From positions 868,001 through 932,000 of the forward strand of contig NC_081333.1 of the NCBI RefSeq assembly GCF_022539665.2: a stretch of 64,000 bases of DNA, in the 5' to 3' direction. A program made the translations under genes and the position numbers. The stretch's first letter is position 1; each line of letters begins with the position of its first letter. This DNA comes from Daphnia carinata. Its lineage: Eukaryota. Below, in pieces: positions 1 through 60,950 of this stretch. The notes beneath the pieces were generated by a model. The model searched no databases, was not told the DNA's origin, and saw only the letters and a program-made list of their open reading frames with translations.

Positions 1-2415
1 AAACGAACATTCTTGGAGCGCATAATTTAAACCAATCATGTAGAAGACATGGAATAGGCTCGAATCCGAAATAGAATTGACAACTGATTTATTATACCAG
101 ATATTATACAATATACATATACCTGTGCGTGTCGGTCTGGCTTGGTTCCGGTGAAGTCTCAGTAGTAAGCAAACGCCTCCCCCGCCGAGCTGTCCGTACA
201 TAAACGCACACAACAACAACAAAAAAATGATGAAAAAAAAAAGTGGATAGCGCTGCAGGCTATCTAGCCCCAAATATTTTGAATCATAAGGCCTACGAGA
301 ACAACACCTGCGGACCTTTCAGGTCAAAGTACTTAAGAAATGACCACCATCATCTCGTCTTTTCCTATACTACTCTGCAGTAAATGGAGTTTTCAAAAAA
401 ATAAAAAAAAAAGATTTTCTTGAAAAGGAGATGGAGGGCTGTATATCAGAATATATTATCTACAATAGGAAAATTTTTGGCGAAACATGAATAGTAAAAG
501 AGTGCGTAGCGCAGCCAAAAAGCCGCCTATTATTTAAACCACAATCGACGGGTACAATCGAAAGGAATATAAGGCCTGCAGACTATAGACCTGCATTCCA
601 GATCTGGCTTTTGTGTTGATAACCTTTTAGCAAACGGAATGAAAGCTCCTTGTTGTCCAGCCCGAGTGGCGAGACGAAAGAAACCATTGCCGGACATATT
701 CTTTTTAAACATACCGCCTTTTTGTTTACTGTTGGGAAGGCCGAGTTTTGTCTTGTTAGAGCACATGCAATAAGGGAGATACAGTAGCTTTTTGCATTTC
801 ACGTGGTTTGTGGTGATCGATAAGGCTATCTAGTTCAAATGAAAATGACGTGCCTACTGGCTGTTTTGCTTCCGTGTATACATGACGGATGAACAGAGGT
901 GTCAAGTTGACAAGCACTGAGCTGGCCGTTCCGTAAAAACAAACGAAATTCGACGAGCGACGGTGATGTGATGCATCATTTCTTCACTGATTGGATGGCA
1001 CATCCATCAGTCTTAATGTGTACACCGGTGCTTCGAATGATGTGTGTCGTGCAACTAGTTTTTTAAAATTTATTTTATTGATTGACCCTACGCTTGCCAC
1101 ATACAAGAGTCGGTAGTGGGGCTCTAACGTGTAGATATAGAAATTATGGAAGAGCACCTAAAGAAAGAAAAAAAAAATGTTAGTCAGTGGCTGTCAGAGC
1201 TGGCAGCATCTCAATTACCTTGGATGAGTAAACATACTAACAACAGTGAGACGAAGATGAATTCTAAGATTGAATTTGTGAGTAGGCCACAAACTATAAT
1301 GCGTGCCCCTAGAGTCAGGCTTGGTCATCCTTGGAAGGATGTTCTATTATTGTTGTAACAACAACCGAAATGCCACAAGCGTCTTAACGATTTCTCCATC
1401 AAGAAGCTTCACTGATATTGCTGCCACATTCCTCTGTACGCTCTTGTTGATACCACTGGCAGCGTCTAAATGCCCTGGCCATTTAAGCAATCGTGCGTTC
1501 GTTCTCTAGCAATAAATGTGCCGCCGTATAGCCATGCACAGAGAAAGAGAAACAAAAAGATTAACGATCACACTTCCATATACAGGGGGAAGGAAAATAA
1601 CAAGGCAAATGATAAGGAAAATTGCCTTCAGTTATAAGCATAGTAAAAAGAAGCTGGGGATTTTCTGAACTTGTCTTCTACAACTTCCCATAATTATAGC
1701 CTGTGGCTTCAGTTCATCCTTTTCCCTCTCGTTGTCTATTTATTCTGTTAATATCGGTGCTAAAAAAGAAACACGAAAGAACGTTGCGTGGTGCTATTAA
1801 AGGGAGGATGCAACAATCTTCCAACGTGATTCTTTAGACGCCGTACACACAGCCTGTTTAGATGCACTTTTGGTTTTACTATATACCAAGGTTGTAGTTA
1901 ATTTGATTGTGTTAATCTGTTTGACTATAAATGTGTTTTATCGCGTTTGCCACTGGAGGGAAACAGTGCGAAGCCATCCAATGAGCGGAATGGTATAGGC
2001 AGAGTTAGATGTCGTATTAATGATGGCTAGCCTCGTGATCAAACATGCGGCTGTATACGTTTACGTAACGATACAGATAAAATGTGGTGGGTACGCGTTG
2101 GCGTCGCCATTGATCAACACGGAGTCATTCCCACTGTCCAAACAAAAACAATAGCCTGAAATTAGGCTGCGACAGCAAATGGTTCGTATTAAATGTTCGT
2201 TAGTATGCTCCGGGGACAACTTGATCAACGCATTTTATTCACTCATGCATCAACCACTTGAAATTTATAGTTTACGAGTAATTCTAATTCAAAGCAGTTA
2301 CGCAAAATCATTTTGATTCTATTTTATTTTAAAATTTACATAAAAAGACTATTAATATTTTATTTTGAATCAGCGTTCAAATTAGGTTATAAGAGGTTAG
2401 GTTTTATCGGCTGTA

Positions 2416-3539
2416 TCGCGCTAGCGCTGTAGTGTACTGGCGCGCCAGCAATGTGTCAAATATTCAGTGTATTTCAAAAACAATTAACTTAATGAAAAAA
2501 AAGCAATTTTCCCTGAATCAGCATGCAATTTTGACCATATCCTGTGATATTCAACCAATTCCGATGAGTGTCAGTTTTTGCAGAAAAAAATTTTAAGCCC
2601 GACTAAATAAGCCCGACTTCTCTTATTTTTTCGTTTTCTACGTTTAATTAAAAAACCATAAGGCCAATTGAAAAATAAATTTGATTTCCGTGATAAGCAT
2701 TCAATTCTGAATCGAAATCACGTTTTTTAAGCGAAATTTTAAAATTTAGCCAAAAACGAAAAAGTGCAAAGGCTATAGCCTTACCACTTCTGTCAAAATC
2801 GGCCAAAAATGACACCTCTTGGACTTCGATGAAAATCACACAGTATAATCAAAATTTAATGCTGATTTAGAAAAAGCCACTCGTTTTCTTTTGAATTTAA
2901 CCGTTTTTTAATTACCCGGAATATTCGTGCAAAAAGCTCGACTAAATAAGCCCGATTTTTCGTTCGAGTGTATATAGGAAAGTAACTAGAAATTTGACCG
3001 GTAGATGGCGATAGCAGTAAACAGAAAAACGGCCTTTTTTCTGCTTTACGCGCTATAATATTTCTGCTAATAATATTTCTGCTAATAATATTTCTGCTGC
3101 ATCACGCTAGCACTGTAGCGTACTGGCGCGCTAGCATTGCGTCAAAATTAGGTATATTTCATAAACGATTAACTTAATGAGCGTCAAAATTGAAAAAGTG
3201 AGAAGGCTATAGCCTTTTCGGCTTTACTTTTTAGTTTTAGGCTTTATTTTCACTCTTCCAATTTTCTTCAAATCCTAGATTTCATTAAAAATGAATTATT
3301 CCGATTCGAAATTGATCGCTGATCACGAAAATGGGGTATGTTTTTATATCAGGCTCTTACTTTTTGAATTAACCGTAAAAAACAGAAAGTCGGGCTTATT
3401 TAGTCGGGCTTAAAAGATTTTTTCGGTCAGTGTATGTAGAAAATTAACTAGAAACGTGACCGGTAGATGGCGATAGCTGTAAAACAGAAAAAAGCCCAGT
3501 ATTTTTTTTTTTTTATTTTGGGTGAAACGGATTGCCATA
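2416..3539. mobile_element. Mosaic of diverged direct and inverted repeats, probably non-autonomous DNA-transposon terminal remnants, ending in GTGAAACGGATTGCCATA
   Basis: Direct repeats 2416-2495 ~ 3102-3180 and 2969-3029 ~ 3431-3493. AAGCCCGACTAAATAAGCCCGA occurs at ~2595, as a variant at ~2933, and inverted at ~3388-3415. 2586-2730 is a diverged inverted copy of ~3285-3423. No coding capacity recognised. Confidence 0.55.
3055..3098. repeat. Tandem repeat of a 15-bp unit (TAATATTTCTGCTAA), ~3 copies
   Basis: Read directly from sequence. Confidence 0.85.
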
Positions 3540-3590
3540 TGGCCATCTAGCGGCCAGATTCCTATTTAATTTTCTCATTCATTCCTTCAG

Positions 3591-5248
3591 ACATAGATTG
3601 GATATGGTTACTTGAACAATGGATTTGCAAATGCAGTACAGCTGACTTATGTTTCACATGGTAAGTTGGAGATTTCCCAGGCAAAATTTCTAGTAACTCA
3701 GCATTTGGTACCATCTTTACTATAATTTTATACAGTACCCTGCATGTCTCATTAATTAAGATTTAAATCCTTTTATAGATTGTCACATCAGTGAGCAAGG
3801 TTCAGTTTAGGGATTGAGAACCCTCAGCGACTATAACATCTAGCCCATATTCACATTGTAGCACTTGATTGCTGCCACTGATTCTTCAAAATGCCTATCT
3901 TGTATGGGATGCTTGACAGTCAAATGGTACTCCGATGTCACATAAATATCAATTGTTTACTTTATTTACATTTATTAAAAATTTTTGAAGGAATGATTTA
4001 AACAAATGCCAAAGGTGAGACATGCTGGAAAAGCTTGATATGAATGTGTAGACGCAGTTTTGGAATTCAGAGGTGCAGCCGGCTGTTGGGTAAAACTTCA
4101 TTTAAATTTTGTTTCAATTCAATATGTTTTAGTTACTATTTGTGTGATTACACAAAGGATTGTGCCATCCAGGCAATGTGGATGTTCTGCCATGTACATG
4201 ATAAACCAAGGATTCTTCGTCAACAGGCAAAATGTTACTCCCTGGTAATGCTTTTCTGCTGAGTTTGTTTAGTTTTCTAATTTTAATAGTCAATGTTGTA
4301 TTAGTAAACTACTGTTGGCAGAATAGCTGATCCATTGGGAAAACGGTTATGGCAAGTGCGATGAATAAATCACCATAGGTCAGTTGTCTTGCCTTCACAA
4401 TTGCAACGAAGATGAATCATGGAGTCAAAAACATTAAAAGGCGGTACTATTTTAAATTTTTTTAATTGTTGTAATTGGTGTATCGCTAAGTGCTGATACA
4501 TGTGTAGAACATGCTGGAATTCATGTCATCCTGGAGAGGACTAAAAAAAACGAGCTTTATCCACGAAGCAGCTCATTAATCATGTCCCAAACGATTGCCT
4601 GCGTCAGCCAGCAATCTTTCAATGGCTAACAAGCATTTAATAGTTTTGAAAATCGCGGTTTGCACTCCCTAAGGCGACATTCCTTAATCCCACCTGTCAA
4701 AAGATTTGAATGCAACCATTTTCTATTCTGAACTGTCGCCTACGAAATTCTTTTTCCATAAAATGAGGTGATATGAGGTTATAATGGAAATTGTCGTCAA
4801 GACTACCGAGACCATGTACCTTCTTTACTTTCACGTTTAGTGATCAAAACAACCAACTATGTAACCTTTCTTTTTTTTTTTTTTTTAAGGTGCATGGAAC
4901 GCCCAATCGGAAAGCCCATGGAAGGTCTCTGTGGCCAACACGAAAGGTTCTCCCAAACTTTCGTATTCAAGTTTTGGCTATGATGATCATTTGCAACTGC
5001 ATAGCCTTTTAGAAGCTCCTGCCAGGAATCTACAGGAATATGGCAGATGATGAATTTATGTACTATGTAAGCCATATCAATAAGAACGTTTTATGCTTAT
5101 CTATGTTTTATTTTCTTAATTTAGATTAATAGCAATAGTGAGCCTGCAAAGGTTTCTGGTTGGGATGTGATGACGAAAAGTTATAATCATTTAAAGTACG
5201 GAATTGAATTTCCCTCCATCAGTCGCCTGTGTATTCCCGCGTATTACG
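3591..5248 (+). pseudogene. Decayed multi-exon gene of unknown family in the left arm of P1 (mirror copy on - strand in the right arm)
   Basis: Series of ag|exon|gt blocks separated by short AT-rich introns. The last two exons read ...IQVLAMMIICNCIAF*KLLPGIYRNMADDEFMYY|INSNSEPAKVSGWDVMTKSYNHL with an in-frame stop, and are homologous to exons in P2. Confidence 0.6.
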
Positions 5249-5262
5249 GTATTAATTATTTA

Positions 5263-5648
5263 AAAATTGAAGTGCATATCTGGGCTCCCTTCCTTTCCGT
5301 AGCCCCGTTTCCCCTTGACTCGTAATAAGCCCGTAGGGGGTCATGCCCCTACTGTACGGTATATATAAAAATAACATATACCGAGGTTTGGAGGGCTCTG
5401 GCCGGAAAGGGGACGTGGGGGTCCGCTTAGTCCGATGATGTGTTCACGGAGGGCGACGTGGCTACACACAAATCCGAACTAAAGGTTAATCGCTCCAGTA
5501 AAAATGTTCCAAATCTTCGGCTCTTCTTCCGGCTTCTCTTAGCCAATCACCGGGTAATCTCCCCGGTGGGTCAACAAGGCAGTGTCTCCCCCTGCCTGGG
5601 TTGACGGCAACTTTTGAAAGGGCTATTGTGCCTTTTTAAAGTTGCAAA
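5263..5648. other. Conserved GC-rich multi-hairpin core (copies at ~6603-6990 inverted, ~56631-57018, ~57930-58258 inverted)
   Basis: Stems: 5292-5299/5403-5410, 5333-5352, 5357-5383, 5548-5568, 5570-5605, 5607-5645. Near-identical between P1 and the P2 left arm although the outer arms are highly diverged. Confidence 0.75.
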
Positions 5649-5861
5649 AATAATTCTAATGTGCAGAGAATTGTCAATAAAAATTTTTTTATAAAATATT
5701 TTTTCCAAAATTTGTTTCTTTCATTGTCTGTTTTCGCTGTGTTCACACATTACGTTTATCAATTTTTTTTTTTATTTAGCTTGCTGGTGTTGGTAAGCAT
5801 TGAGCCACGTTTGATGGTAAGTAATTTTTCTATTGGTTTATCGTTTATCTGTAAGCATTCA

Positions 5862-5932
5862 TTTATTATCCAGGGATCGAACCTTGAATGTTCGGCCTTC
5901 CGCGCCGATGCTCTACCAATGAGCCATGAATC
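5862..5932 (-). ncRNA. tRNA-like unit 1 in P1 spacer (A/B-box element, not a canonical tRNA)
   Basis: Minus strand GATTCATGGCTCATTGGTAGAGCATCGGCGCGGAAGGCCGAACATTCAAGGTTCGATCCCTGG: D stem GCTC/GAGC, anticodon stem TCGGC/GCCGA, B box GGTTCGATCC; poor acceptor stem. Confidence 0.65.
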
Positions 5933-6047
5933 ATGTGATGTTAAGTTGGCTTTTTTCTAGCAACTTGCGGACTTGCATTTACATTAAGAATAAAACTGAA
6001 ATGCTATACTGCAATATTCTTTTCTACATTTAATCTGCTTCATTTTT

Positions 6048-6119
6048 ATACATCTACTGAGGTTTGAACCCTAGTTAACATGTATCGCAGCTAAAGGCTC
6101 TACCACAGAGCTATCGACC
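6048..6119 (-). ncRNA. tRNA-like unit 2 in P1 spacer
   Basis: Minus strand GGTCGATAGCTCTGTGGTAGAGC...AGGGTTCAAACCTC: A box, D stem and B box present; anticodon arm degenerate. Confidence 0.55.
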
Positions 6120-6217
6120 TTATGAAAGCAATAGACAGATAAACATATAGTTGTGAAAGACTGCATAAACATCCTAGACGATAACATATGATATGCGATA
6201 ATAAAAAAATTAGATAT

Positions 6218-6287
6218 GTCTCGTGGCTCAATGTTAGAGCATCGGCATTGCACGCTGAATGTCTGGGGATCAGTTCCACTACGAGCA
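6218..6287 (+). ncRNA. tRNA-like unit 3 in P1 spacer (TGC in the anticodon loop, degenerate T arm)
   Basis: GTCTCGTGGCTCAATGTTAGAGCATCGGCATTGCACGCTGAATGTCTGGGGATCAGTTCCACTACGAG: CTCGT/ACGAG, GCTC/GAGC and TCGGC/GCTGA stems; inverted homologue of unit 1. Confidence 0.55.
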
Positions 6288-8703
6288 AAATAAAATACAA
6301 ATGTAAATTACTTCAGAAAATCTCGAGGTATTACACGTTGTTCCTTGAATCTAAATTGAAGAATTCAAAGAGTGTAATAAATAACAATTGAATACTTACA
6401 CATAAATGATAAATTTGTGGGAATAATGCATACCTCACGGTGGCAAAAACAATAAAGATGAATTGAGCAAGCTAAATAAAAAAAAAATTGATAAACGTAA
6501 TGTGTAAACACAGCGAAAACAGACAATGAAAGAAACAAATTTTGGAAAAAATATTTTATAAAAAAAATTTTATTGACAATTCTCTGCACATTAGAATTAT
6601 TTTTGCAACTTTAAAAAGGCACAATAGCCCTTTCAAAAGTTGCCGTCAACCCAGGCAGGGGGAGACACTGCCTTGTTGACCCACCGGGGAGATTACCCGG
6701 TGATTGGCTAAGAGAAGCCGGAAGAAGAGCCGAAGATTTGGAACATTTTTACTGGAGCGATTAACCTTTAGTTCGGATTTGTGTGTAGCCACGTCGCCCT
6801 CCGTGAACACATCATCGGACTAAGCGGACCCCCACGTCCCCTTTCCGGCCAGAGCCCTCCAAACCTCGGTATATGTTATTTTTATATATACCGTACAGTA
6901 GGGGCATGACCCCCTACGGGCTTATTACGAGTCAAGGGGAAACGGGGCTACGGAAAGGAAGGGAGCCCAGATATGCACTTCAATTTTTAAATAATTAATA
7001 CCGTAATACGCGGGAATACACAGGCGACTGATGGAGGGAAATTCAATTCCGTACTTTAAATGATTATAACTTTTCGTCATCACATCCCAACCAGAAACCT
7101 TTGCAGGCTCACTATTGCTATTAATCTAAATTAAGAAAATAAAACATAGATAAGCATAAAACGTTCTTATTGATATGGCTTACATAGTACATAAATTCAT
7201 CATCTGCCATATTCCTGTAGATTCCTGGCAGGAGCTTCTAAAAGGCTATGCAGTTGCAAATGATCATCATAGCCAAAACTTGAATACGAAAGTTTGGGAG
7301 AACCTTTCGTGTTGGCCACAGAGACCTTCCATGGGCTTTCCGATTGGGCGTTCCATGCACCTTAAAAAAAAAAAGAAAGGTTACATAGTTGGTTGTTTTG
7401 ATCACTAAACGTGAAAGTAAAGAAGGTACATGGTCTCGGTAGTCTTGACGACAATTTCCATTATAACCTCATATCACCTCATTTTATGGAAAAAGAATTT
7501 CGTAGGCGACAGTTCAGAATAGAAAATGGTTGCATTCAAATCTTTTGACAGGTGGGATTAAGGAATGTCGCCTTAGGGAGTGCAAACCGCGATTTTCAAA
7601 ACTATTAAATGCTTGTTAGCCATTGAAAGATTGCTGGCTGACGCAGGCAATCGTTTGGGACATGATTAATGAGCTGCTTCGTGGATAAAGCTCGTTTTTT
7701 TTAGTCCTCTCCAGGATGACATGAATTCCAGCATGTTCTACACATGTATCAGCACTTAGCGATACACCAATTACAACAATTAAAAAAATTTAAAATAGTA
7801 CCGCCTTTTAATGTTTTTGACTCCATGATTCATCTTCGTTGCAATTGTGAAGGCAAGACAACTGACCTATGGTGATTTATTCATCGCACTTGCCATAACC
7901 GTTTTCCCAATGGATCAGCTATTCTGCCAACAGTAGTTTACTAATACAACATTGACTATTAAAATTAGAAAACTAAACAAACTCAGCAGAAAAGCATTAC
8001 CAGGGAGTAACATTTTGCCTGTTGACGAAGAATCCTTGGTTTATCATGTACATGGCAGAACATCCACATTGCCTGGATGGCACAATCCTTTGTGTAATCA
8101 CACAAATAGTAACTAAAACATATTGAATTGAAACAAAATTTAAATGAAGTTTTACCCAACAGCCGGCTGCACCTCTGAATTCCAAAACTGCGTCTACACA
8201 TTCATATCAAGCTTTTCCAGCATGTCTCACCTTTGGCATTTGTTTAAATCATTCCTTCAAAAATTTTTAATAAATGTAAATAAAGTAAACAATTGATATT
8301 TATGTGACATCGGAGTACCATTTGACTGTCAAGCATCCCATACAAGATAGGCATTTTGAAGAATCAGTGGCAGCAATCAAGTGCTACAATGTGAATATGG
8401 GCTAGATGTTATAGTCGCTGAGGGTTCTCAATCCCTAAACTGAACCTTGCTCACTGATGTGACAATCTATAAAAGGATTTAAATCTTAATTAATGAGACA
8501 TGCAGGGTACTGTATAAAATTATAGTAAAGATGGTACCAAATGCTGAGTTACTAGAAATTTTGCCTGGGAAATCTCCAACTTACCATGTGAAACATAAGT
8601 CAGCTGTACTGCATTTGCAAATCCATTGTTCAAGTAACCATATCCAATCTATGTCTGAAGGAATGAATGAGAAAATTAAATAGGAATCTGGCCGCTAGAT
8701 GGC

Positions 8704-8835
8704 CATAGCTGTAAAAAAGAAAAAAAAGGCCAAAATTTTATTTTTTTTGGGGGGGTAAAACGGATTGCCATACATAGCTGTAAAAAAGAAAAAAAAGGCC
8801 GAAATTTTTTTTTTTAGGGTAATCGGATTGCCATA
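8704..8835 (+). repeat. Two tandem ~65 bp terminal units, each ending CGGATTGCCATA
   Basis: CATAGCTGTAAAAAAGAAAAAAAAGGCC..T-tract..GGGTAA(AA/T)CGGATTGCCATA at ~8704-8772 and ~8773-8835; similar to 3472-3539. Confidence 0.8.
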
Positions 8836-40316: not shown

Positions 40317-41897
40317 ATGGTTCGAGAACATGTACTTGAAGCGATGCTCTCACTCCAGTATTTGACTACGAGTTTGCGAATGCGCAGGACTAGCTCACTG
40401 TTTGACATGGAGCCTTCGCTGTCTGTCCAATGCGTGTCACGAGACGCTGCCGTGACGGCTGAGAGCGGTGGCATTTTCGGCGGCCAGCACACGCAAACTG
40501 GCTTTCATCGCGCGTCCAGGTGGCTCTGCTACTTGACCACCTGTCTGGCTTTCATCCTCGGCGTTGGCGTTGGCGTCGCCCTGCCCATGATCTACGCGTC
40601 TTCCGCCGGCAACGAGATCAACAACACGCTGCTCACCTCCTGGCCGATGGCGGCCAAATCGCCAATCATCGTCCACCTGCCTCTCAACGTGACTGCCAAG
40701 ACGACGAATGGCAGCCTAGCAACGCGCCCACCGGCCAAAAGCAAATGGCAGTTGCGCAAGAAGGAGAAGGAAACGCTGACAGCGCAACGTCGAATGTCAC
40801 TCAAGTCCAGTCAGCCGGACGAGGCCGCCCTATCGACGGAAGACGATGCGCAAACGGCCGACGTTGTCAGCTTCGTTCAGCCTCAAACGTCTTGGGTTGC
40901 GACGGCCAGCCAAGAGCCACCACCCAAGACCATCGTGGCTGACGCCGTCAAAGGTATTTTCTGGTCACGTGCCGTCGAGGACGCCCTGCCCACCGGTTTC
41001 GACGAGCAAAACGCCAAAGAGTGGCGCGACTTCAGCCACCAGAAGCCCATCGTGCGCGTCGAGGAAGGCTGCGGTCGCATGCAAAATCGATTGATCACGT
41101 TCGAGAGCGGCCGCCAATCGTGTTGCCGCTACCGCCAAAACTACGATCAAATCCAAGGCGAGATCTTCAGCTTCTATTTGAGCCAATTGATCGGCTTGCG
41201 CAACCTACCGCCCTCCTCGCTCGGCCTCGTCCGTCCGCTCGATCGCCAATGGATTAACGTTCAATCGTCGCTGAGCCAAGCGCAGTGGACGGAGGACCGA
41301 CCGGTCGTGTACACGCAGTTCCTCAACGACCTGGAGCCGGCCTACATCCCCGTTCAGTTTCGCGGCCGCGATCGCCATCTCAATCCGTCGGACGTTCAGC
41401 ATCACAAACTGGAGGACAAGGCGGAGCGCGATGAGCTGATAACGCTTGCCCAATGGTCTGACCTTTTGGTCTTTGACTACCTGACAGCCAACCTGGATAG
41501 AATGGTGAACAACCTTTACAACATGCAGTGGAATCCGACGATGATGGATTCACCTGCTCACAATCTGTCACGCGATTCGCGGACGGGTTTGCTCGTCTTC
41601 CTCGACAACGAGAGCGGCCTACTGCACGGCTATCGGCTCCTGGACAAGTACGAAGTCTATCACAAGAGTCTGCTCGATTCGTTGTGCGTCTTTAGACGAT
41701 CCACCGTCGACTCGCTGCGACAGTTGCAGTCGAACAAGAACGTCGGCAATCTATTGCGCCACATGTTCGAAACGCGCGATCCATCACTGTTGGATTTCTT
41801 ACCTTTCCTGCCGGAGAAGAGCATCAAGACACTCAATTATCGTATTGATCAAGTACTTGATCAAGTGGCCAAATGTCAATCTCTTTACGGTTCTTAA
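40317..41897 (+). CDS. fj: Four-jointed Golgi kinase (Fj/FJX1 family), single coding exon; exact start ATG uncertain (40317, 40344, 40380 or 40408)
   Basis: Type II TM segment (LAFILGVGVGVALPMIY), GIFWS..VE..LP.GF, GCGRMQNRL, CCRYRQNYDQIQGEIFSFYL, QWSDLLVFDYLTANLDR and the LDNESGLLHGY motif; GC-rich codon usage. Confidence 0.95.
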   Translation: MVREHVLEAMLSLQYLTTSLRMRRTSSLFDMEPSLSVQCVSRDAAVTAESGGIFGGQHTQTGFHRASRWLCYLTTCLAFILGVGVGVALPMIYASSAGNEINNTLLTSWPMAAKSPIIVHLPLNVTAKTTNGSLATRPPAKSKWQLRKKEKETLTAQRRMSLKSSQPDEAALSTEDDAQTADVVSFVQPQTSWVATASQEPPPKTIVADAVKGIFWSRAVEDALPTGFDEQNAKEWRDFSHQKPIVRVEEGCGRMQNRLITFESGRQSCCRYRQNYDQIQGEIFSFYLSQLIGLRNLPPSSLGLVRPLDRQWINVQSSLSQAQWTEDRPVVYTQFLNDLEPAYIPVQFRGRDRHLNPSDVQHHKLEDKAERDELITLAQWSDLLVFDYLTANLDRMVNNLYNMQWNPTMMDSPAHNLSRDSRTGLLVFLDNESGLLHGYRLLDKYEVYHKSLLDSLCVFRRSTVDSLRQLQSNKNVGNLLRHMFETRDPSLLDFLPFLPEKSIKTLNYRIDQVLDQVAKCQSLYGS

Positions 41898-54760: not shown

Positions 54761-55154
54761 ACGCGTTATTCTCCATCCACGCTACTGAACTAACTGCGAA
54801 TGGCATCCAATGGACTGAAATTGCCTACGCCAGTAATAACGAGTCTGAGCGGTAGATGGCTACGTGTCGGAAAAAAAGAAAAAAGTGTGATCTTTTTTTT
54901 TTTTTTTTGGCGAAATTTTTTTTTTTTTTTTTTTTTGTGTAAAACTATGGCAATATGGCAATCTATTATGGCAATCCGTTTTACACAAAAAAAAAAAAAA
55001 AATTCCGCCAAAAAAAAAAAAAAATCACACTTTTTTCTTTTTTTCCGACACGTAGCCATCTACCGCTTAGACTCGTTATTACTGGCATAGGCAATTTCAG
55101 TCCATTGGATGCCATTCGCAGTTAGTTCAGTAACGTGGATGGAGAATAACGCGT
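54761..55154. repeat. Small palindrome P0: ~180 bp arms (54761-54945 / 54978-55154) with three TATGGCAA copies in the loop
   Basis: Mirror ORFs 54790-55059(-)/54800-55090(+); a few substitutions between arms; TATGGCAA at 54946, 54954, 54967. Confidence 0.9.
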
Positions 55155-55841
55155 GGCTGGAGGAACAATTGAAAAATGGATAAGATAATACAACAAAAGG
55201 ATGGTAAGTATAAACATTATTATATTGGTTTTCAATTATTAATTATTGTTTATTAGATCAAATTATGAAGCTGTAGGCCCAATTATTGGAACAACCCAAA
55301 ATATTAGATAACAGCAAAGCTAAGGATGGTAAGGCCTAATATGTAATGATTCTATTTATTTGCTTTTATTCATTTGTGTTTTGTAGCTCAAATTTTGAGT
55401 CTACAAGCTCAGCTAGGGGAAAAGAACAAATTGGAACGGAACAGTTTCCAAACAGTGAAGGAGGTTTTTCAAAACTCTTCCCTAACTGAACGTGAGGATG
55501 AATTGGCATTAGGCGAACACAGTCAGGTACCTAAACGTTTCAAATAAGAATTCAAAATAAGTATAGAATTTTAACAAACAATTATTTATTGTTTAGTTAT
55601 TCAGTCTACCACCTGACAGTGTGTTAAAGTTAAATTCTGTTAGTGCTGCAGTAAAAGAATTGTTAGTAATAAGTCCATGCAGCGAAGGAAATGAACAATT
55701 GTGGGACCGTATTTGGGCTGAAAATGGGTGTGGTACGGAAACCCAGAAATAGCATGAGTTCAACATAAAACATGAAGTAGGTACTTTTCGGTTTTTTGTC
55801 TATTGAAAAAGTATTTTTAATGCTATTATTTTGCATTCACA

Positions 55842-56618
55842 GAATTTTAGTGGGGGATCAAGTCAAGTCTGGAAGTGTTACAGGATGGAAGAGTGAGCCT
55901 ACAGTTGAAAAACACTGAAAGTGCATTACCATTAAGGTATGAGGTAAAGTAATAGAGTATGCAAATTGTCGAATGAGAAGTACCATCTTGTGTGAATGAA
56001 TCCTGTGTAACAGCAATCCTTTATAGTTCTGTCACAGCTAGAAGCCTCAAATAATTCTGCCTCTCTTGCTAAAGAACAACTTGTCCTTTACATTCAGAAT
56101 GTTGGTGAAGCTAGGTACTTAAATGGCCCTAAAGATGTTTCATTTCATTGGCATTGCAGCGATGAACATCATACATGGACTTTTTAGGTATGAAAGGAAT
56201 TTTCTTGAAAATATTTTGAATTTATGACAAAGCATTTCTCCTCCTTTTTGCCAACCATGTCTAATCTACAAAAAAAAATTATCCAATAGGAAAGGATTTT
56301 CAGCATACTGGGAACACAACTATCAACAATGCAACATTCTACGGGTGTTATTTTATCATTCAAGAGCCTTGTACAATGATTTTCATCTACAATTTGTATG
56401 GCCTTTCCCAAGCTTCTGTCAGAAGTTGAATCTATGAGTCATGTAAGTCACATGAGCAACAATTGAGATGCTTAATGGTGTTGTTTTTCTTTTCTCAGTG
56501 TAGGTTAATAGTAACATTGGATCTGAAAAAATTCGTGGTTGGGGCATGACACTGAATAAATTATAATGATTGGATGGATGACATGATATTTCTATACTTC
56601 ATTCGGATTCCCGAGACG
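55842..56618 (+). pseudogene. Decayed multi-exon gene in the P2 left arm, homologous to the P1 arm gene (further exon-like blocks at 55155-55780)
   Basis: ...IQEP(C/Y)TMIFI(Y/C)N/CMAFPKLL(S/P)EVESMSH|VNSNIGSEKIRGWGM...; same phase-0 intron position as in P1; frameshifts present. Confidence 0.6.
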
Positions 56619-57213
56619 GTATTTTATATTTAAAAAATTGAAGTGCATATCTGGGCTCCCCTCCTTTCCGTAGCCCCGTTTCCCCTTGACTCGTAATAAG
56701 CCCGTAGGGGGTCATGCCCCTACTGTACGGTATATATAAAAACAACATATACCGAGGTTTGGAGGGCTCTGGCCGGAAAGGGGACGTGGGGTGCCGCTTA
56801 GTCCGATGATGTGTTCACGGAGGGCGACGTGGCTACCCACAAATCCGAACTAAAGGTTAATCGCTCCTGTAAAAATGTTCCAAATCTTCAGCTCTTCTTC
56901 CGGCTTCTCTTAGCCAATCACCGGGTAATCTCCCCGGTGGGTCAACAAGGCAGTGTCTCCCCCTGTCTGGGTTGACGGCAACTTTTGAAAGGGCTATTGT
57001 GCCCTTTTAAAGTTGCAAAAATAATTGTAATGTGCAGAGGATTGTCAATAAAATTTTTTTTATAAAATATTTTTTGCAAAATTTGTTTCTTTCATTGTCT
57101 GTGTTCACACATTACATTTATCAACTTTTTTTTTGCTTTGCTTTATTTGTTTTTGTCACTTTTGATGGTAAGCATTGTTTCCATCGGTTTATCATTTATC
57201 TGTAAGCATTCTA

Positions 57214-57637
57214 TTATTATCCAGGGATCGAACCCTGGATGTTCGGCATACCGCGCCGATGCTCTACCAATGAGCCATGAATCCTGTTACGACAAATTGG
57301 CTTTTTTCTAGTCACTTGTAGACTTGCATTTACACTTAGAATAAAACTGAAATGCAATTCTGCAAAATACTCTTCTACATTTACTCTACTTCATTTTTAC
57401 ACATCTACTGAGGTTTGAACCCTGGGTAACAGGTATCGCAGCTAAAGTCTCTACCACAGAGATAATAACCATATAAAAGCAAAAGAAAGATATACATATA
57501 AATGTGAAAGATTGCATGAACATCCTAGACGATAACATATGATATGCGATAATAAAATGTTAAGATATGTCTCGTGGCTCAATGTTAGAGCATCGGCGTT
57601 GCACGCTGAATGTCTGGGGATCGGTTCCCATACGAGT
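57214..57637. ncRNA. Three tRNA-like units in the P2 spacer (57214-57284 -, ~57400-57470 -, 57569-57637 +)
   Basis: Same order and orientation as the three P1 units, with stems retained. Confidence 0.6.
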
Positions 57638-59464
57638 GAAACAAAATACAAAATTACTTCAAAAAATATCCAGATATTACACGTTGTTCCTTGAATCTAA
57701 GTTGAAGAATTCAAAGAGTGTAATAAATAATAATTGAATGCTGACAGATAAACGATAGACCAATGGAAACAATGTTTACCATCAAAGGTGACAAAAACAA
57801 ATAAAGCAAAGCAAATAAAAAAAAGTTGATAAATGTAATGTGTGAACACAGACAATGAAAGAAACAAATTTTGCAAAAAATATTTTATAAAAAAAATTTT
57901 ATTGACAATCCTCTGCACATTACAATTATTTTTGCAACTTTAAAAGGGCACAATAGCCCTTTCAAAAGTTGCCGTCAACCCAGGCAGGGGGAGACACTGC
58001 CTTGTTGACCCACCGGAGAGATTACCCGGTGATTGGCTAAGAGAAGCCGGAAGAAGAGCTGAAGATTTGGAACATTTTTACAGGAGCGATTAACCTTTAG
58101 TTCGGATTTGTGGGTAGCCAGGTCGCCCTCCGTGAACACATCATCGGACTAAGCGGCACCCCACGGACCAAGCATGACCCCCTACGGCCTTATTAGAAAT
58201 TTAGGGGAAACGGGGCCTCAGAAAGAAGGGAGCCCAGATATGCACTTCAATTTTTTAAATATAAAATACCGTCTCGGGAATCCGAATGAAGTATAGAAAT
58301 GTCATGTTAACCATCCAATCATTGCAATTTATTCAGTGTCTTGCCCCAACCAAGAATCTTTTCAGATCCAATGTTACTATCAACCTATACTGAGAAAAGC
58401 AAAACACCATTAAGCATCTCAATTGTTGCTCATGTGACTTACATGACTCATAGATTCAACTTCTGGCAGAAGCTTGGGAAAGGCCATACAAATTGCAGAT
58501 GAAAATCATTGTATAAGGCTCTTGAATGATAAAATAGCACCCGTAGAATGTTGCATTGTTGATAGCTGTGTTCCCAGTATGCTGAAAATCCTTTCCTATT
58601 GGATAAATTTTTTTTTGTAGATTAGACATGGTTGGCAAAAAGGAGGAGAAATGCTTCGTCATAAATTCAAAAATTTTTCAAGAAAATTTCTTTCATACCT
58701 AAAGAGTCCATGTATGATGTTCATCGCTGCAATGCCAGCGAAGTGAAACATCGGTAGGGCCATTAAAGTACCCAGCTTCACCAACACTCTGAACGTTAAG
58801 GACAAGTTTTTTGTTCTTTAGCAAGAGAAGCAGAATTATTTGAGGCTTCTAGCTGTGACAGAACTATAAAGGATTGCTGTTATACAGGATTCATTCACAC
58901 AAGATGGTACTTCTCATTAGACAATTTGCATACTCTATTACTTTACCTCATACCTTAACGGCAATGCACTCTCAGTGTTTTTTCAACTGTAGGCTCACTC
59001 TTCCATCCTGTAACACTTCCAGACTTGACTTGATCCCCCGCTAAAATTCTGTGAATGTAAAACAATAGCATTAAAAATACTTTTTCGATAGACAAAAAAC
59101 CAAAAAGTACCTAATCCATGTTTGATGTTGAGCTCATGCCGTTTCTGGGTTTCCGTACCACACCCATTTTCGGCAGACTTTATGGCAATATTAATCAAAG
59201 CCACACGTCCCACTATGAAATGGATGTTGAAAAGCAAATAAAAACCTGTTGAGATGGATATCAGGAGAATCAGAATAGATCTCAATCAACTTCAGTTATT
59301 CCCTTCCCTATAGTACTTAGTGACATAGAAGAGAAGACCTAAAATGCAAAGGTAAAAATATTGGGCATAATTGCAGTTTACCAAGCATAGTAGCAAAATA
59401 AAATAATTATCAAAGAAAAACATATGCACACTTGGGTTGCCGAATGGGTAAGTTTGATGCAAAC

Positions 59465-59799: not shown

Positions 59800-60505
59800 G
59801 CGAGTGGGTCGACAGGCAGCGCGTGGGCCGACGGGCAGATGAGTGGGTCGACGGGCAGCGAGGGGGCCGACGGGCAGAACGGGGGCTGACGGGCAGAGAG
59901 GTCTACGGGCAATAACAGCGGGCTTCTTAGCGGGCAGAAGCAAAAAATGGATGGACGGACAACTATAGCGGGGGTGTTGACGGGCCGAGACTGTGACGAA
60001 AGGGTGGGCAAATGCAAAAAAAAGGTAGATGTTCCCCCAGTAGGCATTTTTGGGGGCAGAATGGGAGTTGACGGGCAGAGTGTGGGTTGACGGGCAGAGA
60101 GGGGGTCGACGGGTAAAGTGTGGTTGGGCAGAGAAAGTGAGGGGATGGCCGGCAGAAACAATGAGTGGGTCGGCGGGGATGAAAGGGGAACTCTTGATTG
60201 ATGAATAGAATTAAGAGTAGACGGGCAAAAAATAGGCATGGGTCAATTTTCTTAAAAATAGCGTAAAAATACGCTAGCGCCAACTATCCCCCGGCCGTGG
60301 ACGGGCTCAACGTTACTAGTAAATAAATAAAGTGAGAGGGTTTGCGGGCAAAAATAGGGAGTGTTTTAATATGAAAAAAGAATTAAAATTAGACGGCAAA
60401 ATAACGAATAAATTAGGCTCAAATTAACGATTGACCGACTAAAATTAAGAAAAAGAAGCGTTAAAATGCGCTATCCCCAGGTCTTGCACGGGCAAAAGTT
60501 ACTAG
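59800..60505 (+). mobile_element. Probable non-autonomous Helitron-like remnant: degenerate ~20 bp GGGTCGACGGGCAG minisatellite followed by two hairpin+CTAG|T 3' ends
   Basis: CTATCCCCCGGCCGTGGACGGGCTCAACGTTACTAGT (CTAG 60316-60319) and CTATCCCCAGGTCTTGCACGGGCAAAAGTTACTAGT (CTAG 60502-60505) fit the Helitron 3' signature; no 5' TC end or RepHel coding sequence identified. Confidence 0.5.
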
Positions 60506-60608: not shown

Positions 60609-60680
60609 TACACTATTCCATTGCTTCATAAGCTACCTATTTCAATGGGTGACACCCAAAGCAAAATTTGTTTGGGATGT

Positions 60681-60753
60681 GCGGTCCTGGCACAGTGGTT
60701 ACCACCTTCGCTTCGCATTCTGAGGGCCCCGGGTTCAAGTCCCGCCACCGCCA
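60681..60753 (+). pseudogene. tRNA pseudogene / tRNA-derived element
   Basis: GCGGTCCTGGCACAGTGGTT...CCGGGTTCAAGTCCCGCCACCGCCA: 73 nt, A and B boxes, 5 of 7 acceptor pairs, broken D and anticodon stems. Confidence 0.6.
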
Positions 60754-60814
60754 ATTTCCCTCCCTCCCTTTCCCTCCAATTCATCATTCAAGATACGCAA
60801 GATTCTACTCATTC

Positions 60815-60950
60815 AAGAAAGAAAAGAAGAAGAAAGAATAAAAGAAGAAAGAAAAAAAGAAGAAAGAATAAAAGAAGAAAGAATAAAAGAAGAAAGAATA
60901 AAAGAAGTGAGAAAAAAAGAAGAAAGAATAAAAGAAGAGAGAAAAGAAGA
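60815..60950. repeat. Purine-rich 15-bp minisatellite (AAAGAAGAAAGAATA, ~9 copies)
   Basis: Read directly; accounts for the spurious KNKRR-repeat ORF. Confidence 0.85.

Follow-up and report, generated by a model that had tools for sequence, protein, structure and literature searches.

IS3EU transposon families have TA..TA ends and usually create 6-bp duplications (PMC10045372), and the ends of fungal IS3EU elements read TAYGG..CCRTA (PMC12730594). GingerRoot elements carry terminal inverted repeats (TIRs) of 100–150 bp, have many unpaired ends, and 22 of the 77 elements harbor gene fragments with introns (PMC6839031). IS3EU has been listed in Daphnia at 0.05% of D. pulex and 0.00 in D. magna (PMC8594854), and its structure and function have been called largely unexplored (PMC11934779). 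Here, a stretch of 64,000 nucleotides from Daphnia carinata (contig NC_081333.1, positions 868,001 to 932,000 of the forward strand), hereafter the window, was found to contain two long palindromes, P1 (3538–8707) and P2 (55717–59174; all positions are those of the window). Both are probably non-autonomous fold-back derivatives of an IS3EU/GingerRoot-type Daphnia family, the arms of which are predicted to be kept alike by repeated copying.

P1 and P2 resemble IS3EU/GingerRoot elements, as far as these are described in the accessible text, in their TAYGG-type termini, a terminal block of ~100 bp, intron-bearing fragments and unpaired ends. The likeness extends to the layout of convergent genes, as in L053, an ordinary IS3EU copy with convergent genes that was found among contigs fetched for comparison. 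Unlike the elements in those descriptions, P1 and P2 have arms that are mirrored over kilobases, a hairpin-rich core and a tRNA-like centre. The module formed by the core and the tRNA-like centre is the unexplained part; in other respects the elements behave like TIR transposons in fold-back form. In the accessible literature, Repbase and the D. magna transposable element library apart, we found neither mirrored IS3EU elements nor the core and tRNA-like centre described.

A second point of comparison is Galileo of the P superfamily, for which a 9021-bp copy from Drosophila willistoni consists almost entirely of TIRs (4246 and 4680 bp) and segments of the transposase recur in each of the TIRs of one copy (PMC4168063). 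Galileo differs from P1 and P2 in superfamily and in that single copies were extended ad hoc, with no common structured centre reported in the portions available. Nonetheless, Galileo and the L052 element presented below are exceptions to a premise of the preliminary description of this locus, namely that ordinary TIR transposons have their gene between the repeats and not in duplicate inside them.

P1 is a single inverted repeat. Self-BLAST and an alignment of the arms match the left arm (3538–5785, + strand) to the right arm (6466–8707, − strand) over 2248 columns with 99.6% identity, the differences in total being two substitutions and two homopolymer indels. The arms enclose an asymmetric spacer of 680 bp. 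In P2, the left arm (55717–57220, + strand) contains a decayed gene and the core (about 56633–57021), and the right arm (57727–59174, − strand) is truncated with a 61-bp deletion inside its core. The P2 arms align as two blocks, 93% identical in the outer part and 97% in the inner part, around an asymmetric spacer of 506 bp. Thus, the preliminary description was correct in presenting P1 as a near-complete inverted repeat and P2 as having the same layout. Its term "whole-element palindrome" is approximate: on the left arm of P1, ~65 bp are missing from the outer part of the terminus and the arm is joined to a terminus next to it, and the two sides of P2 are unequal, with the left side extending ~750 bp past the palindrome to a terminus at 54967.

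An alignment of all four arms was used to follow the history of the mirror symmetry. Among its ungapped columns, 599 are invariant, 96 distinguish the two elements, the arms within each being in agreement, none separates left from right, and 36 show other patterns. This ratio of 96 to 0 supports the independent symmetrisation of P1 and P2 that had been proposed. Within the core, positions 5372, 5466, 5497 and 5519 have a letter in both P1 arms that differs from P2 and from other sequencing runs, which supports copying from arm to arm. The 300 bp immediately upstream of the core are 63–68% alike between P1 and P2 and align as DNA; beyond these last ~300 bp, neither sensitive blastn nor tblastx found a relation between the arms. 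An earlier claim that the outer arms are related mainly at the protein level is not supported.

The spacer differs from the arms in its history. P1 (5786–6465) and P2 (57221–57726) have spacers that are 87% identical, and the P1 spacer has the character of an old, diverged mirror with edges that are 73% alike and outer tRNA-like units that are 63–75% alike. Three tRNA-like units with A and B boxes point outward in the P1 spacer: one into the left arm (5870–5926, − strand), a second with no Rfam hit (6059–6113, − strand), and one into the right arm (6217–6288, + strand; Rfam). In P2, Rfam identified units at 57222–57277 (− strand) and 57571–57636 (+ strand), and a middle unit is 88% like its P1 counterpart. 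The Rfam tRNA scores are 24.9 bits twice in P1, and 30.8 and 22.1 bits in P2. With a cut-off of 29, one of the four hits is above threshold and it spans only model positions 8–63. ARAGORN called no tRNA gene and, together with the partial Rfam coverage, this argues against a full tRNA gene with an acceptor stem; the homologous tRNA-like spacer of the preliminary description is otherwise retained. Units on the same side are 92–94% alike across P1 and P2, compared to 63–71% across sides, which argues that the asymmetry of the centre is older than the split between P1 and P2 and that the arms were levelled afterwards. Judged from these alignments, the centre is an old palindrome around which the arms were levelled later, and separately, in each element.

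Two other kinds of element were considered and rejected. A tRNA-derived short interspersed nuclear element (SINE) that spans the core would need an RNA polymerase III transcript from its tRNA head through its body, but each outward tRNA-like unit is separated from the core by at least three T4/T5 runs. A Penelope-like or retrozyme origin was set aside since there was no hammerhead pattern on either strand and no Rfam ribozyme hit. Elsewhere in the window (60680–60950), a tRNA-like head with A and B boxes is followed by an AAGA-rich tail that is SINE-like by eye.

The assignment to IS3EU/GingerRoot comes from the termini. The 11-mer TATGGCAATCC occurs five times in the window against 0.03 expected, with tips at 3539, 8772, 8835, 54967 and 59465, and four of these head a common block of 60–100 bp. 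The outer ends read TATGG-CAATCC, and all five tips conform to the TAYGG..CCRTA rule. The right terminus of P1 is a TIR of ~100 bp that starts with TATGG (8673–8772, − strand), and outside of it a second, partial copy follows in tandem (8773–8835, − strand). On the left, the P1 arm is joined tip-first to a terminus of the same family (3440–3539, − strand; 81% alike) that belongs to a degenerate neighbour. The P2 left terminus, which also reads TATGG (54967–55066, + strand), is part of a tip-to-tip palindrome of two termini (54761–55154) with reiterated partial tips at its centre (54946–54966). To the right of P2, a partial tip lies six bases past the arm (59181–59189, + strand) and a further terminus of the family faces away from P2 (59465–59484, + strand). 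Bacterial IS3-family elements insert next to existing ends, and the clustering of ends in the window resembles that behavior. The terminal block includes the word TAGATGGC at 3464–3480, 8696–8712, 54853–54869 and 55046–55062, which we take to resemble an insulator-protein (CTCF-like) motif as a candidate only.

Two alternative superfamilies were tried for these ends, and neither fits. ISL2EU (PHIS) elements have GG termini and an AT duplication in an A/AT/T target (PMC4482050); here, AT is preceded by T instead of A at each of the five full tips. Kolobok elements have RR..YY termini and a TTAA duplication (PMC9587614), and no TTAA was present next to any tip. Around the termini, window positions 2400–3539 hold degenerate direct and inverted repeats of the terminal family, including a decayed end at 2980–3042, and short GC-rich degenerate tandem repeats follow the 59465 terminus (59800–60300).

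In order to have IS3EU proteins for comparison, a motif scan was made that led to eukaryote-like contigs with PF24764 transposases in prokaryote bins. In the eight bins (G001–G008), the IS3EU transposase genes are eukaryote-like and in part have introns; some lie on contigs longer than 1 Mb, and the DNA that holds them is likely mis-binned host DNA. From 23 fetched regions, 12 distinct elements with TAY(G/C)G ends and identical 6-bp flanks were identified, seven of which had transposase hits. One of these, L052 (5663–14531 of its region, on the eukaryote-like contig G002:C16), is an 8.9-kb whole-element IS3EU palindrome. Its arms of 4366 bp have two differences between them and surround a centre of 137 bp, its ends read TACGG..CCGTA, and its flanks are an identical 6 bp. 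Exons of a PF24764 transposase point inward in both arms; each arm has a second gene that reads outward, and motifs resembling GC boxes lie beside the centre. Thus, L052 is like P1 and P2 in its whole-element mirror, genes in both arms, TAYGG-type ends and short unique centre, and unlike them in having both ends, a 6-bp duplication and a recognisable transposase.

Several other copies provide context for L052. L088 contains a non-mirrored relative with the same ends. In L062 (8085–16472), an IS3EU-type copy has its right end duplicated with the same 6-bp flank present twice, and in L080 (2719–12049) a 1205-bp copy with the same ends is nested 133 bp from the right end of another; these duplicated and nested ends resemble the clustered ends of the Daphnia window. 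In IS3EU-rich regions, L055 (12502–17015) has transposase pieces between inverted arms of ~1 kb (83%) and L056 (12439–15017) is a nearly complete palindrome of 2.6 kb with no duplication detected.

Each arm of P1 holds a decayed inward gene (3590–5700, + strand) that has introns of 58–74 nt, no long open reading frame and a mirror copy in the right arm. Contigs from four of 14 listed public sequencing runs were compared with P1 3540–6465. In run X1, from organism A, the contigs skip four stretches of 60–71 nt with GT..AG ends at 3708–3778, 3927–3990, 4090–4157 and 4245–4304 (+ strand), and there are looser joints near three further predicted introns, placed at about 4444–4507, 4816–4889 and 5067–5124 (+ strand). 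The run's own label is DNA, by guess, and none of the listed runs is recorded as RNA; given the intron-skipping joints, it would be better read as RNA. P1-like arms thus appear to be transcribed inward and spliced, the contigs themselves showing neither strand nor level. Once spliced, the P1 arm has 20–34 stops per frame with a longest open stretch of 84 codons, and is therefore non-coding. As a result, the inward gene of the preliminary description stands as a spliced inward unit and not as a long P1 reading frame. In these spliced tests, the fifth P1 intron was taken one base too long (acceptor 4507, not 4508) and the alignments tolerate frameshifts. The P2 exons are predictions only; in the outer stretch of the left gene that has no mirror (55127–55716, + strand), they come from GT-AG signals alone. 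Near the end of the P1 unit, an AATAAA (5676–5681, + strand; mirror at 6569–6574) followed by a U-rich tract forms a predicted poly(A) signal that the inward transcript may use.

The identity of the arm genes was pursued at the protein level. Word-based searches and HMMER against 1.84 billion representatives returned nothing for the arm proteins, and a Pfam analysis of nine whole frames and of 27 and 24 exon pieces gave sub-threshold chance hits only. The integrase-like DDE transposase PF24764 had no Pfam hit in the arms, which also gave no signal against the fetched transposases or a 22-sequence profile. In the frameshift-tolerant alignments, all sense-strand z-scores were 1.8 or lower, and one antisense score of 3.1 against a single sequence was gone with the profile. 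The missing transposase excludes an autonomous copy and fits a non-autonomous one. Likenesses seen by eye between the arms and motifs of the IS3EU transposase and accessory protein did not hold up against shuffled sequences and were discarded. A possible likeness to Kolobok-like transposase motifs was also noted by eye. The arm genes are perhaps pieces captured from the host, or else accessory genes in decay.

The core is located in the last exon of the P1 arm gene (5245–5650, + strand; mirror copy at 6600–7005, − strand), upstream of the AATAAA at 5676. It is best conserved over 5262–5650, where 380 of 389 positions (98%) are identical between P1 and P2. The core contains four perfect hairpins and folds better than shuffled sequences with z-scores of −3.6 and −5.1 on its two strands, compared to −0.2 to −1.2 for arm and spacer controls. 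The near-identical structured core of the preliminary description is thereby supported. No Rfam family matched the core, making this element of ~390 nt a candidate for a new structured RNA or cis-element. The core, together with parts of the tRNA-like units, was also present in runs of organisms B and C. Shorter core patterns were found at 26 plus two loci (GC 0.46–0.74) that were taken as chance, since a BLAST of the window against the 28 loci was empty.

The reading of P1 and P2 as fold-back derivatives of an IS3EU/GingerRoot-type family brings these features together, and the fold-back mobile element proposed in the preliminary description gains support from the element-wise levelling of the arms, the termini and the fold controls. 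In the ancestor, two transcription units may have converged on a tRNA-derived spacer, their terminal exons forming an inverted pair on either side of it. The trigger could have been a break that fell within or close to one of the arms, for example a transposase cut at clustered ends. The central repeat would then fold back or pair and prime synthesis on the intact arm, leaving two copies of one arm; P1 would have undergone such copying recently, whereas in P2 it would be older or incomplete. A unit that has two like ends might become movable by a transposase supplied in trans. Inward transcription of each arm would give a spliced, non-coding RNA with its end at the core, and the outward tRNA-like RNA polymerase III units may serve as a barrier, limiting read-through into long double-stranded RNA.

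Several observations limit this reading. P1 retains a complete terminus on the right but just the inner portion of the one on the left, and P2 retains only its left end. All termini in the window are unpaired and, as a result, no 6-bp duplication is shown. Membership in IS3EU is likely and is read from the termini only, because the arms and core have no detectable similarity to IS3EU proteins: with single sequences or profiles, and even with frameshifts allowed, they matched neither the IS3EU transposase nor its accessory N-domain, nor the HECT-like domain found in L053. The comparison with L052 also has its limits. The L052 region was selected for twin hits, so that one in 12 is no frequency; the element has two genes per arm, a promoter-like centre and no tRNA call, in contrast to the Daphnia elements; and it has neither sequence similarity to nor a core in common with P1 and P2.

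Among the other explanations, the best supported is that the core, spacer and core (5245–7005, 1761 bp) are a high-copy fold-back element of their own with TIRs of ~540 bp and TACGG ends, a second IS3EU-type end. An outer TATGG element would then hold the 1761-bp unit in the last exon of its decayed gene, and the unit would seed the inverted duplication of its own flank. TACGG does occur at 5245 and is mirrored at 7005, and five TACGG/CCGTA words lie at the outer edge of the core (5197–5359) within 171 bp, a number reached in 0 of 2000 shuffles and compared to at most two per 171-bp stretch elsewhere in the window. Furthermore, the match in three other runs begins close to 5262, the loose ends there being several and unlike one another (agreement 0.65–0.77), and the summed depth of the core in these runs is far above that of the arm, although contig depth is no copy number. 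The core is also 98% alike between P1 and P2 against 66% in the adjoining exon. An inner element is nevertheless unlikely. In P1 and P2, the core occupies the same spot in a homologous exon and intron, which would need one old event or strict targeting; the first T of TACGG is missing in P2 and from some of the loose ends; and the flanks are inverted with no direct 6-bp repeat.

A more doubtful explanation is that the core is a structured RNA useful to the host, the 3' end of a multicopy non-coding family arranged in palindromic gene pairs, with the transposon ends as mere carriers. Palindromic gene pairs are kept by arm-to-arm conversion, and tRNA genes are known as chromatin barriers. P1 and P2 are similar to both in that their arms are levelled, their spacer diverges, and A/B-box units lie where two transcripts converge; unlike such pairs, they are bounded by transposon ends, their genes are decayed, and any barrier role is putative. 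In favor of a host RNA, the core is covered by contigs from organisms B and C, which leave most of the arm uncovered, and the core directly precedes AATAAA in the spliced unit. The four perfect stems (56 nt) contain none of the 22 core differences among those listed (P about 0.03), a count to be read with the 83 further differences that exist, and many of the listed ones break predicted pairs outside of these stems. A pair-by-pair inspection of the same 22 differences found no clear compensatory change on either strand. In addition to the lack of an Rfam match, the P2 right core is decayed, and in organism C the core is conserved to about the same degree as the region of the last intron, so that homogenisation, in place of selection, can explain the identity of the core within the genome.

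The preliminary description had also offered an integrated hairpin replicon, in which P1 and P2 would be head-to-head replicative forms of a hairpin-ended replicon, either parvovirus-like or resolved by a protelomerase. Hairpin-ended replicons of this kind, including parvovirus dimers, need a perfect palindrome at the axis and a Rep protein, resolvase or polymerase. The mirror symmetry of the whole unit is common to both and the core has many short perfect hairpins; the perfect axis and the replicon genes were not found in P1 or P2. Instead, the axis is asymmetric over 500–680 bp, the introns are spliceosomal and the ends are of the DDE type. Rep/HUH, protelomerase and primed polymerase families had no Pfam hit in the frames and exon pieces, a test limited by gene decay. 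Exact core 20- and 21-mers had no matches in viral, metagenome or prokaryote contigs, and a distant blastn search of phages and plasmids found no match to the core. This origin is thus very improbable. Slighter still is the chance that the palindromes are assembly or library artefacts made from fold-back chimeric reads, as the 99.6% identity of the P1 arms, which polishing could have levelled further, might suggest: the P2 arms differ by 3–7% and by the 61-bp deletion, the same asymmetric spacer is found at both axes, and in the independent run X1 three contigs have the opposite-strand joint 5785/6465 between arm and spacer, so that both palindromes are taken as real and an artefact as unlikely.

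Returning to the fold-back derivatives of an IS3EU/GingerRoot-type family, L052, as a duplication-flanked mirrored element with a transposase in both arms, suggests that such palindromes can transpose whole. The Daphnia pair adds arm-to-arm levelling at two ages around one conserved centre. A broader proposal, speculative and on balance improbable, is that IS3EU transposons routinely move as palindromes, with a dedicated Daphnia module (a structured terminal-exon RNA in either arm and divergent tRNA-like RNA polymerase III barriers) seeding re-symmetrisation and averting silencing by double-stranded RNA as an "insulated palindrome," and with the core RNA acting in mobility. The elements offer a natural, multicopy test in a model genus for the ways in which long palindromes arise and are maintained in animal genomes, and in which they escape RNA silencing or contribute to it.

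The remainder of the window includes two features apart from the palindromes. An intronless four-jointed kinase gene is located at 40317–41897; its protein falls into a cluster, at 90% identity, with proteins named for Daphnia magna, so that the host is placed close to that species. To the right of P1 (9100–15800) is a compact cluster of genes that we take to be host genes resembling MRPS17, CTDP1/FCP1, METTL15 and HTATIP2.

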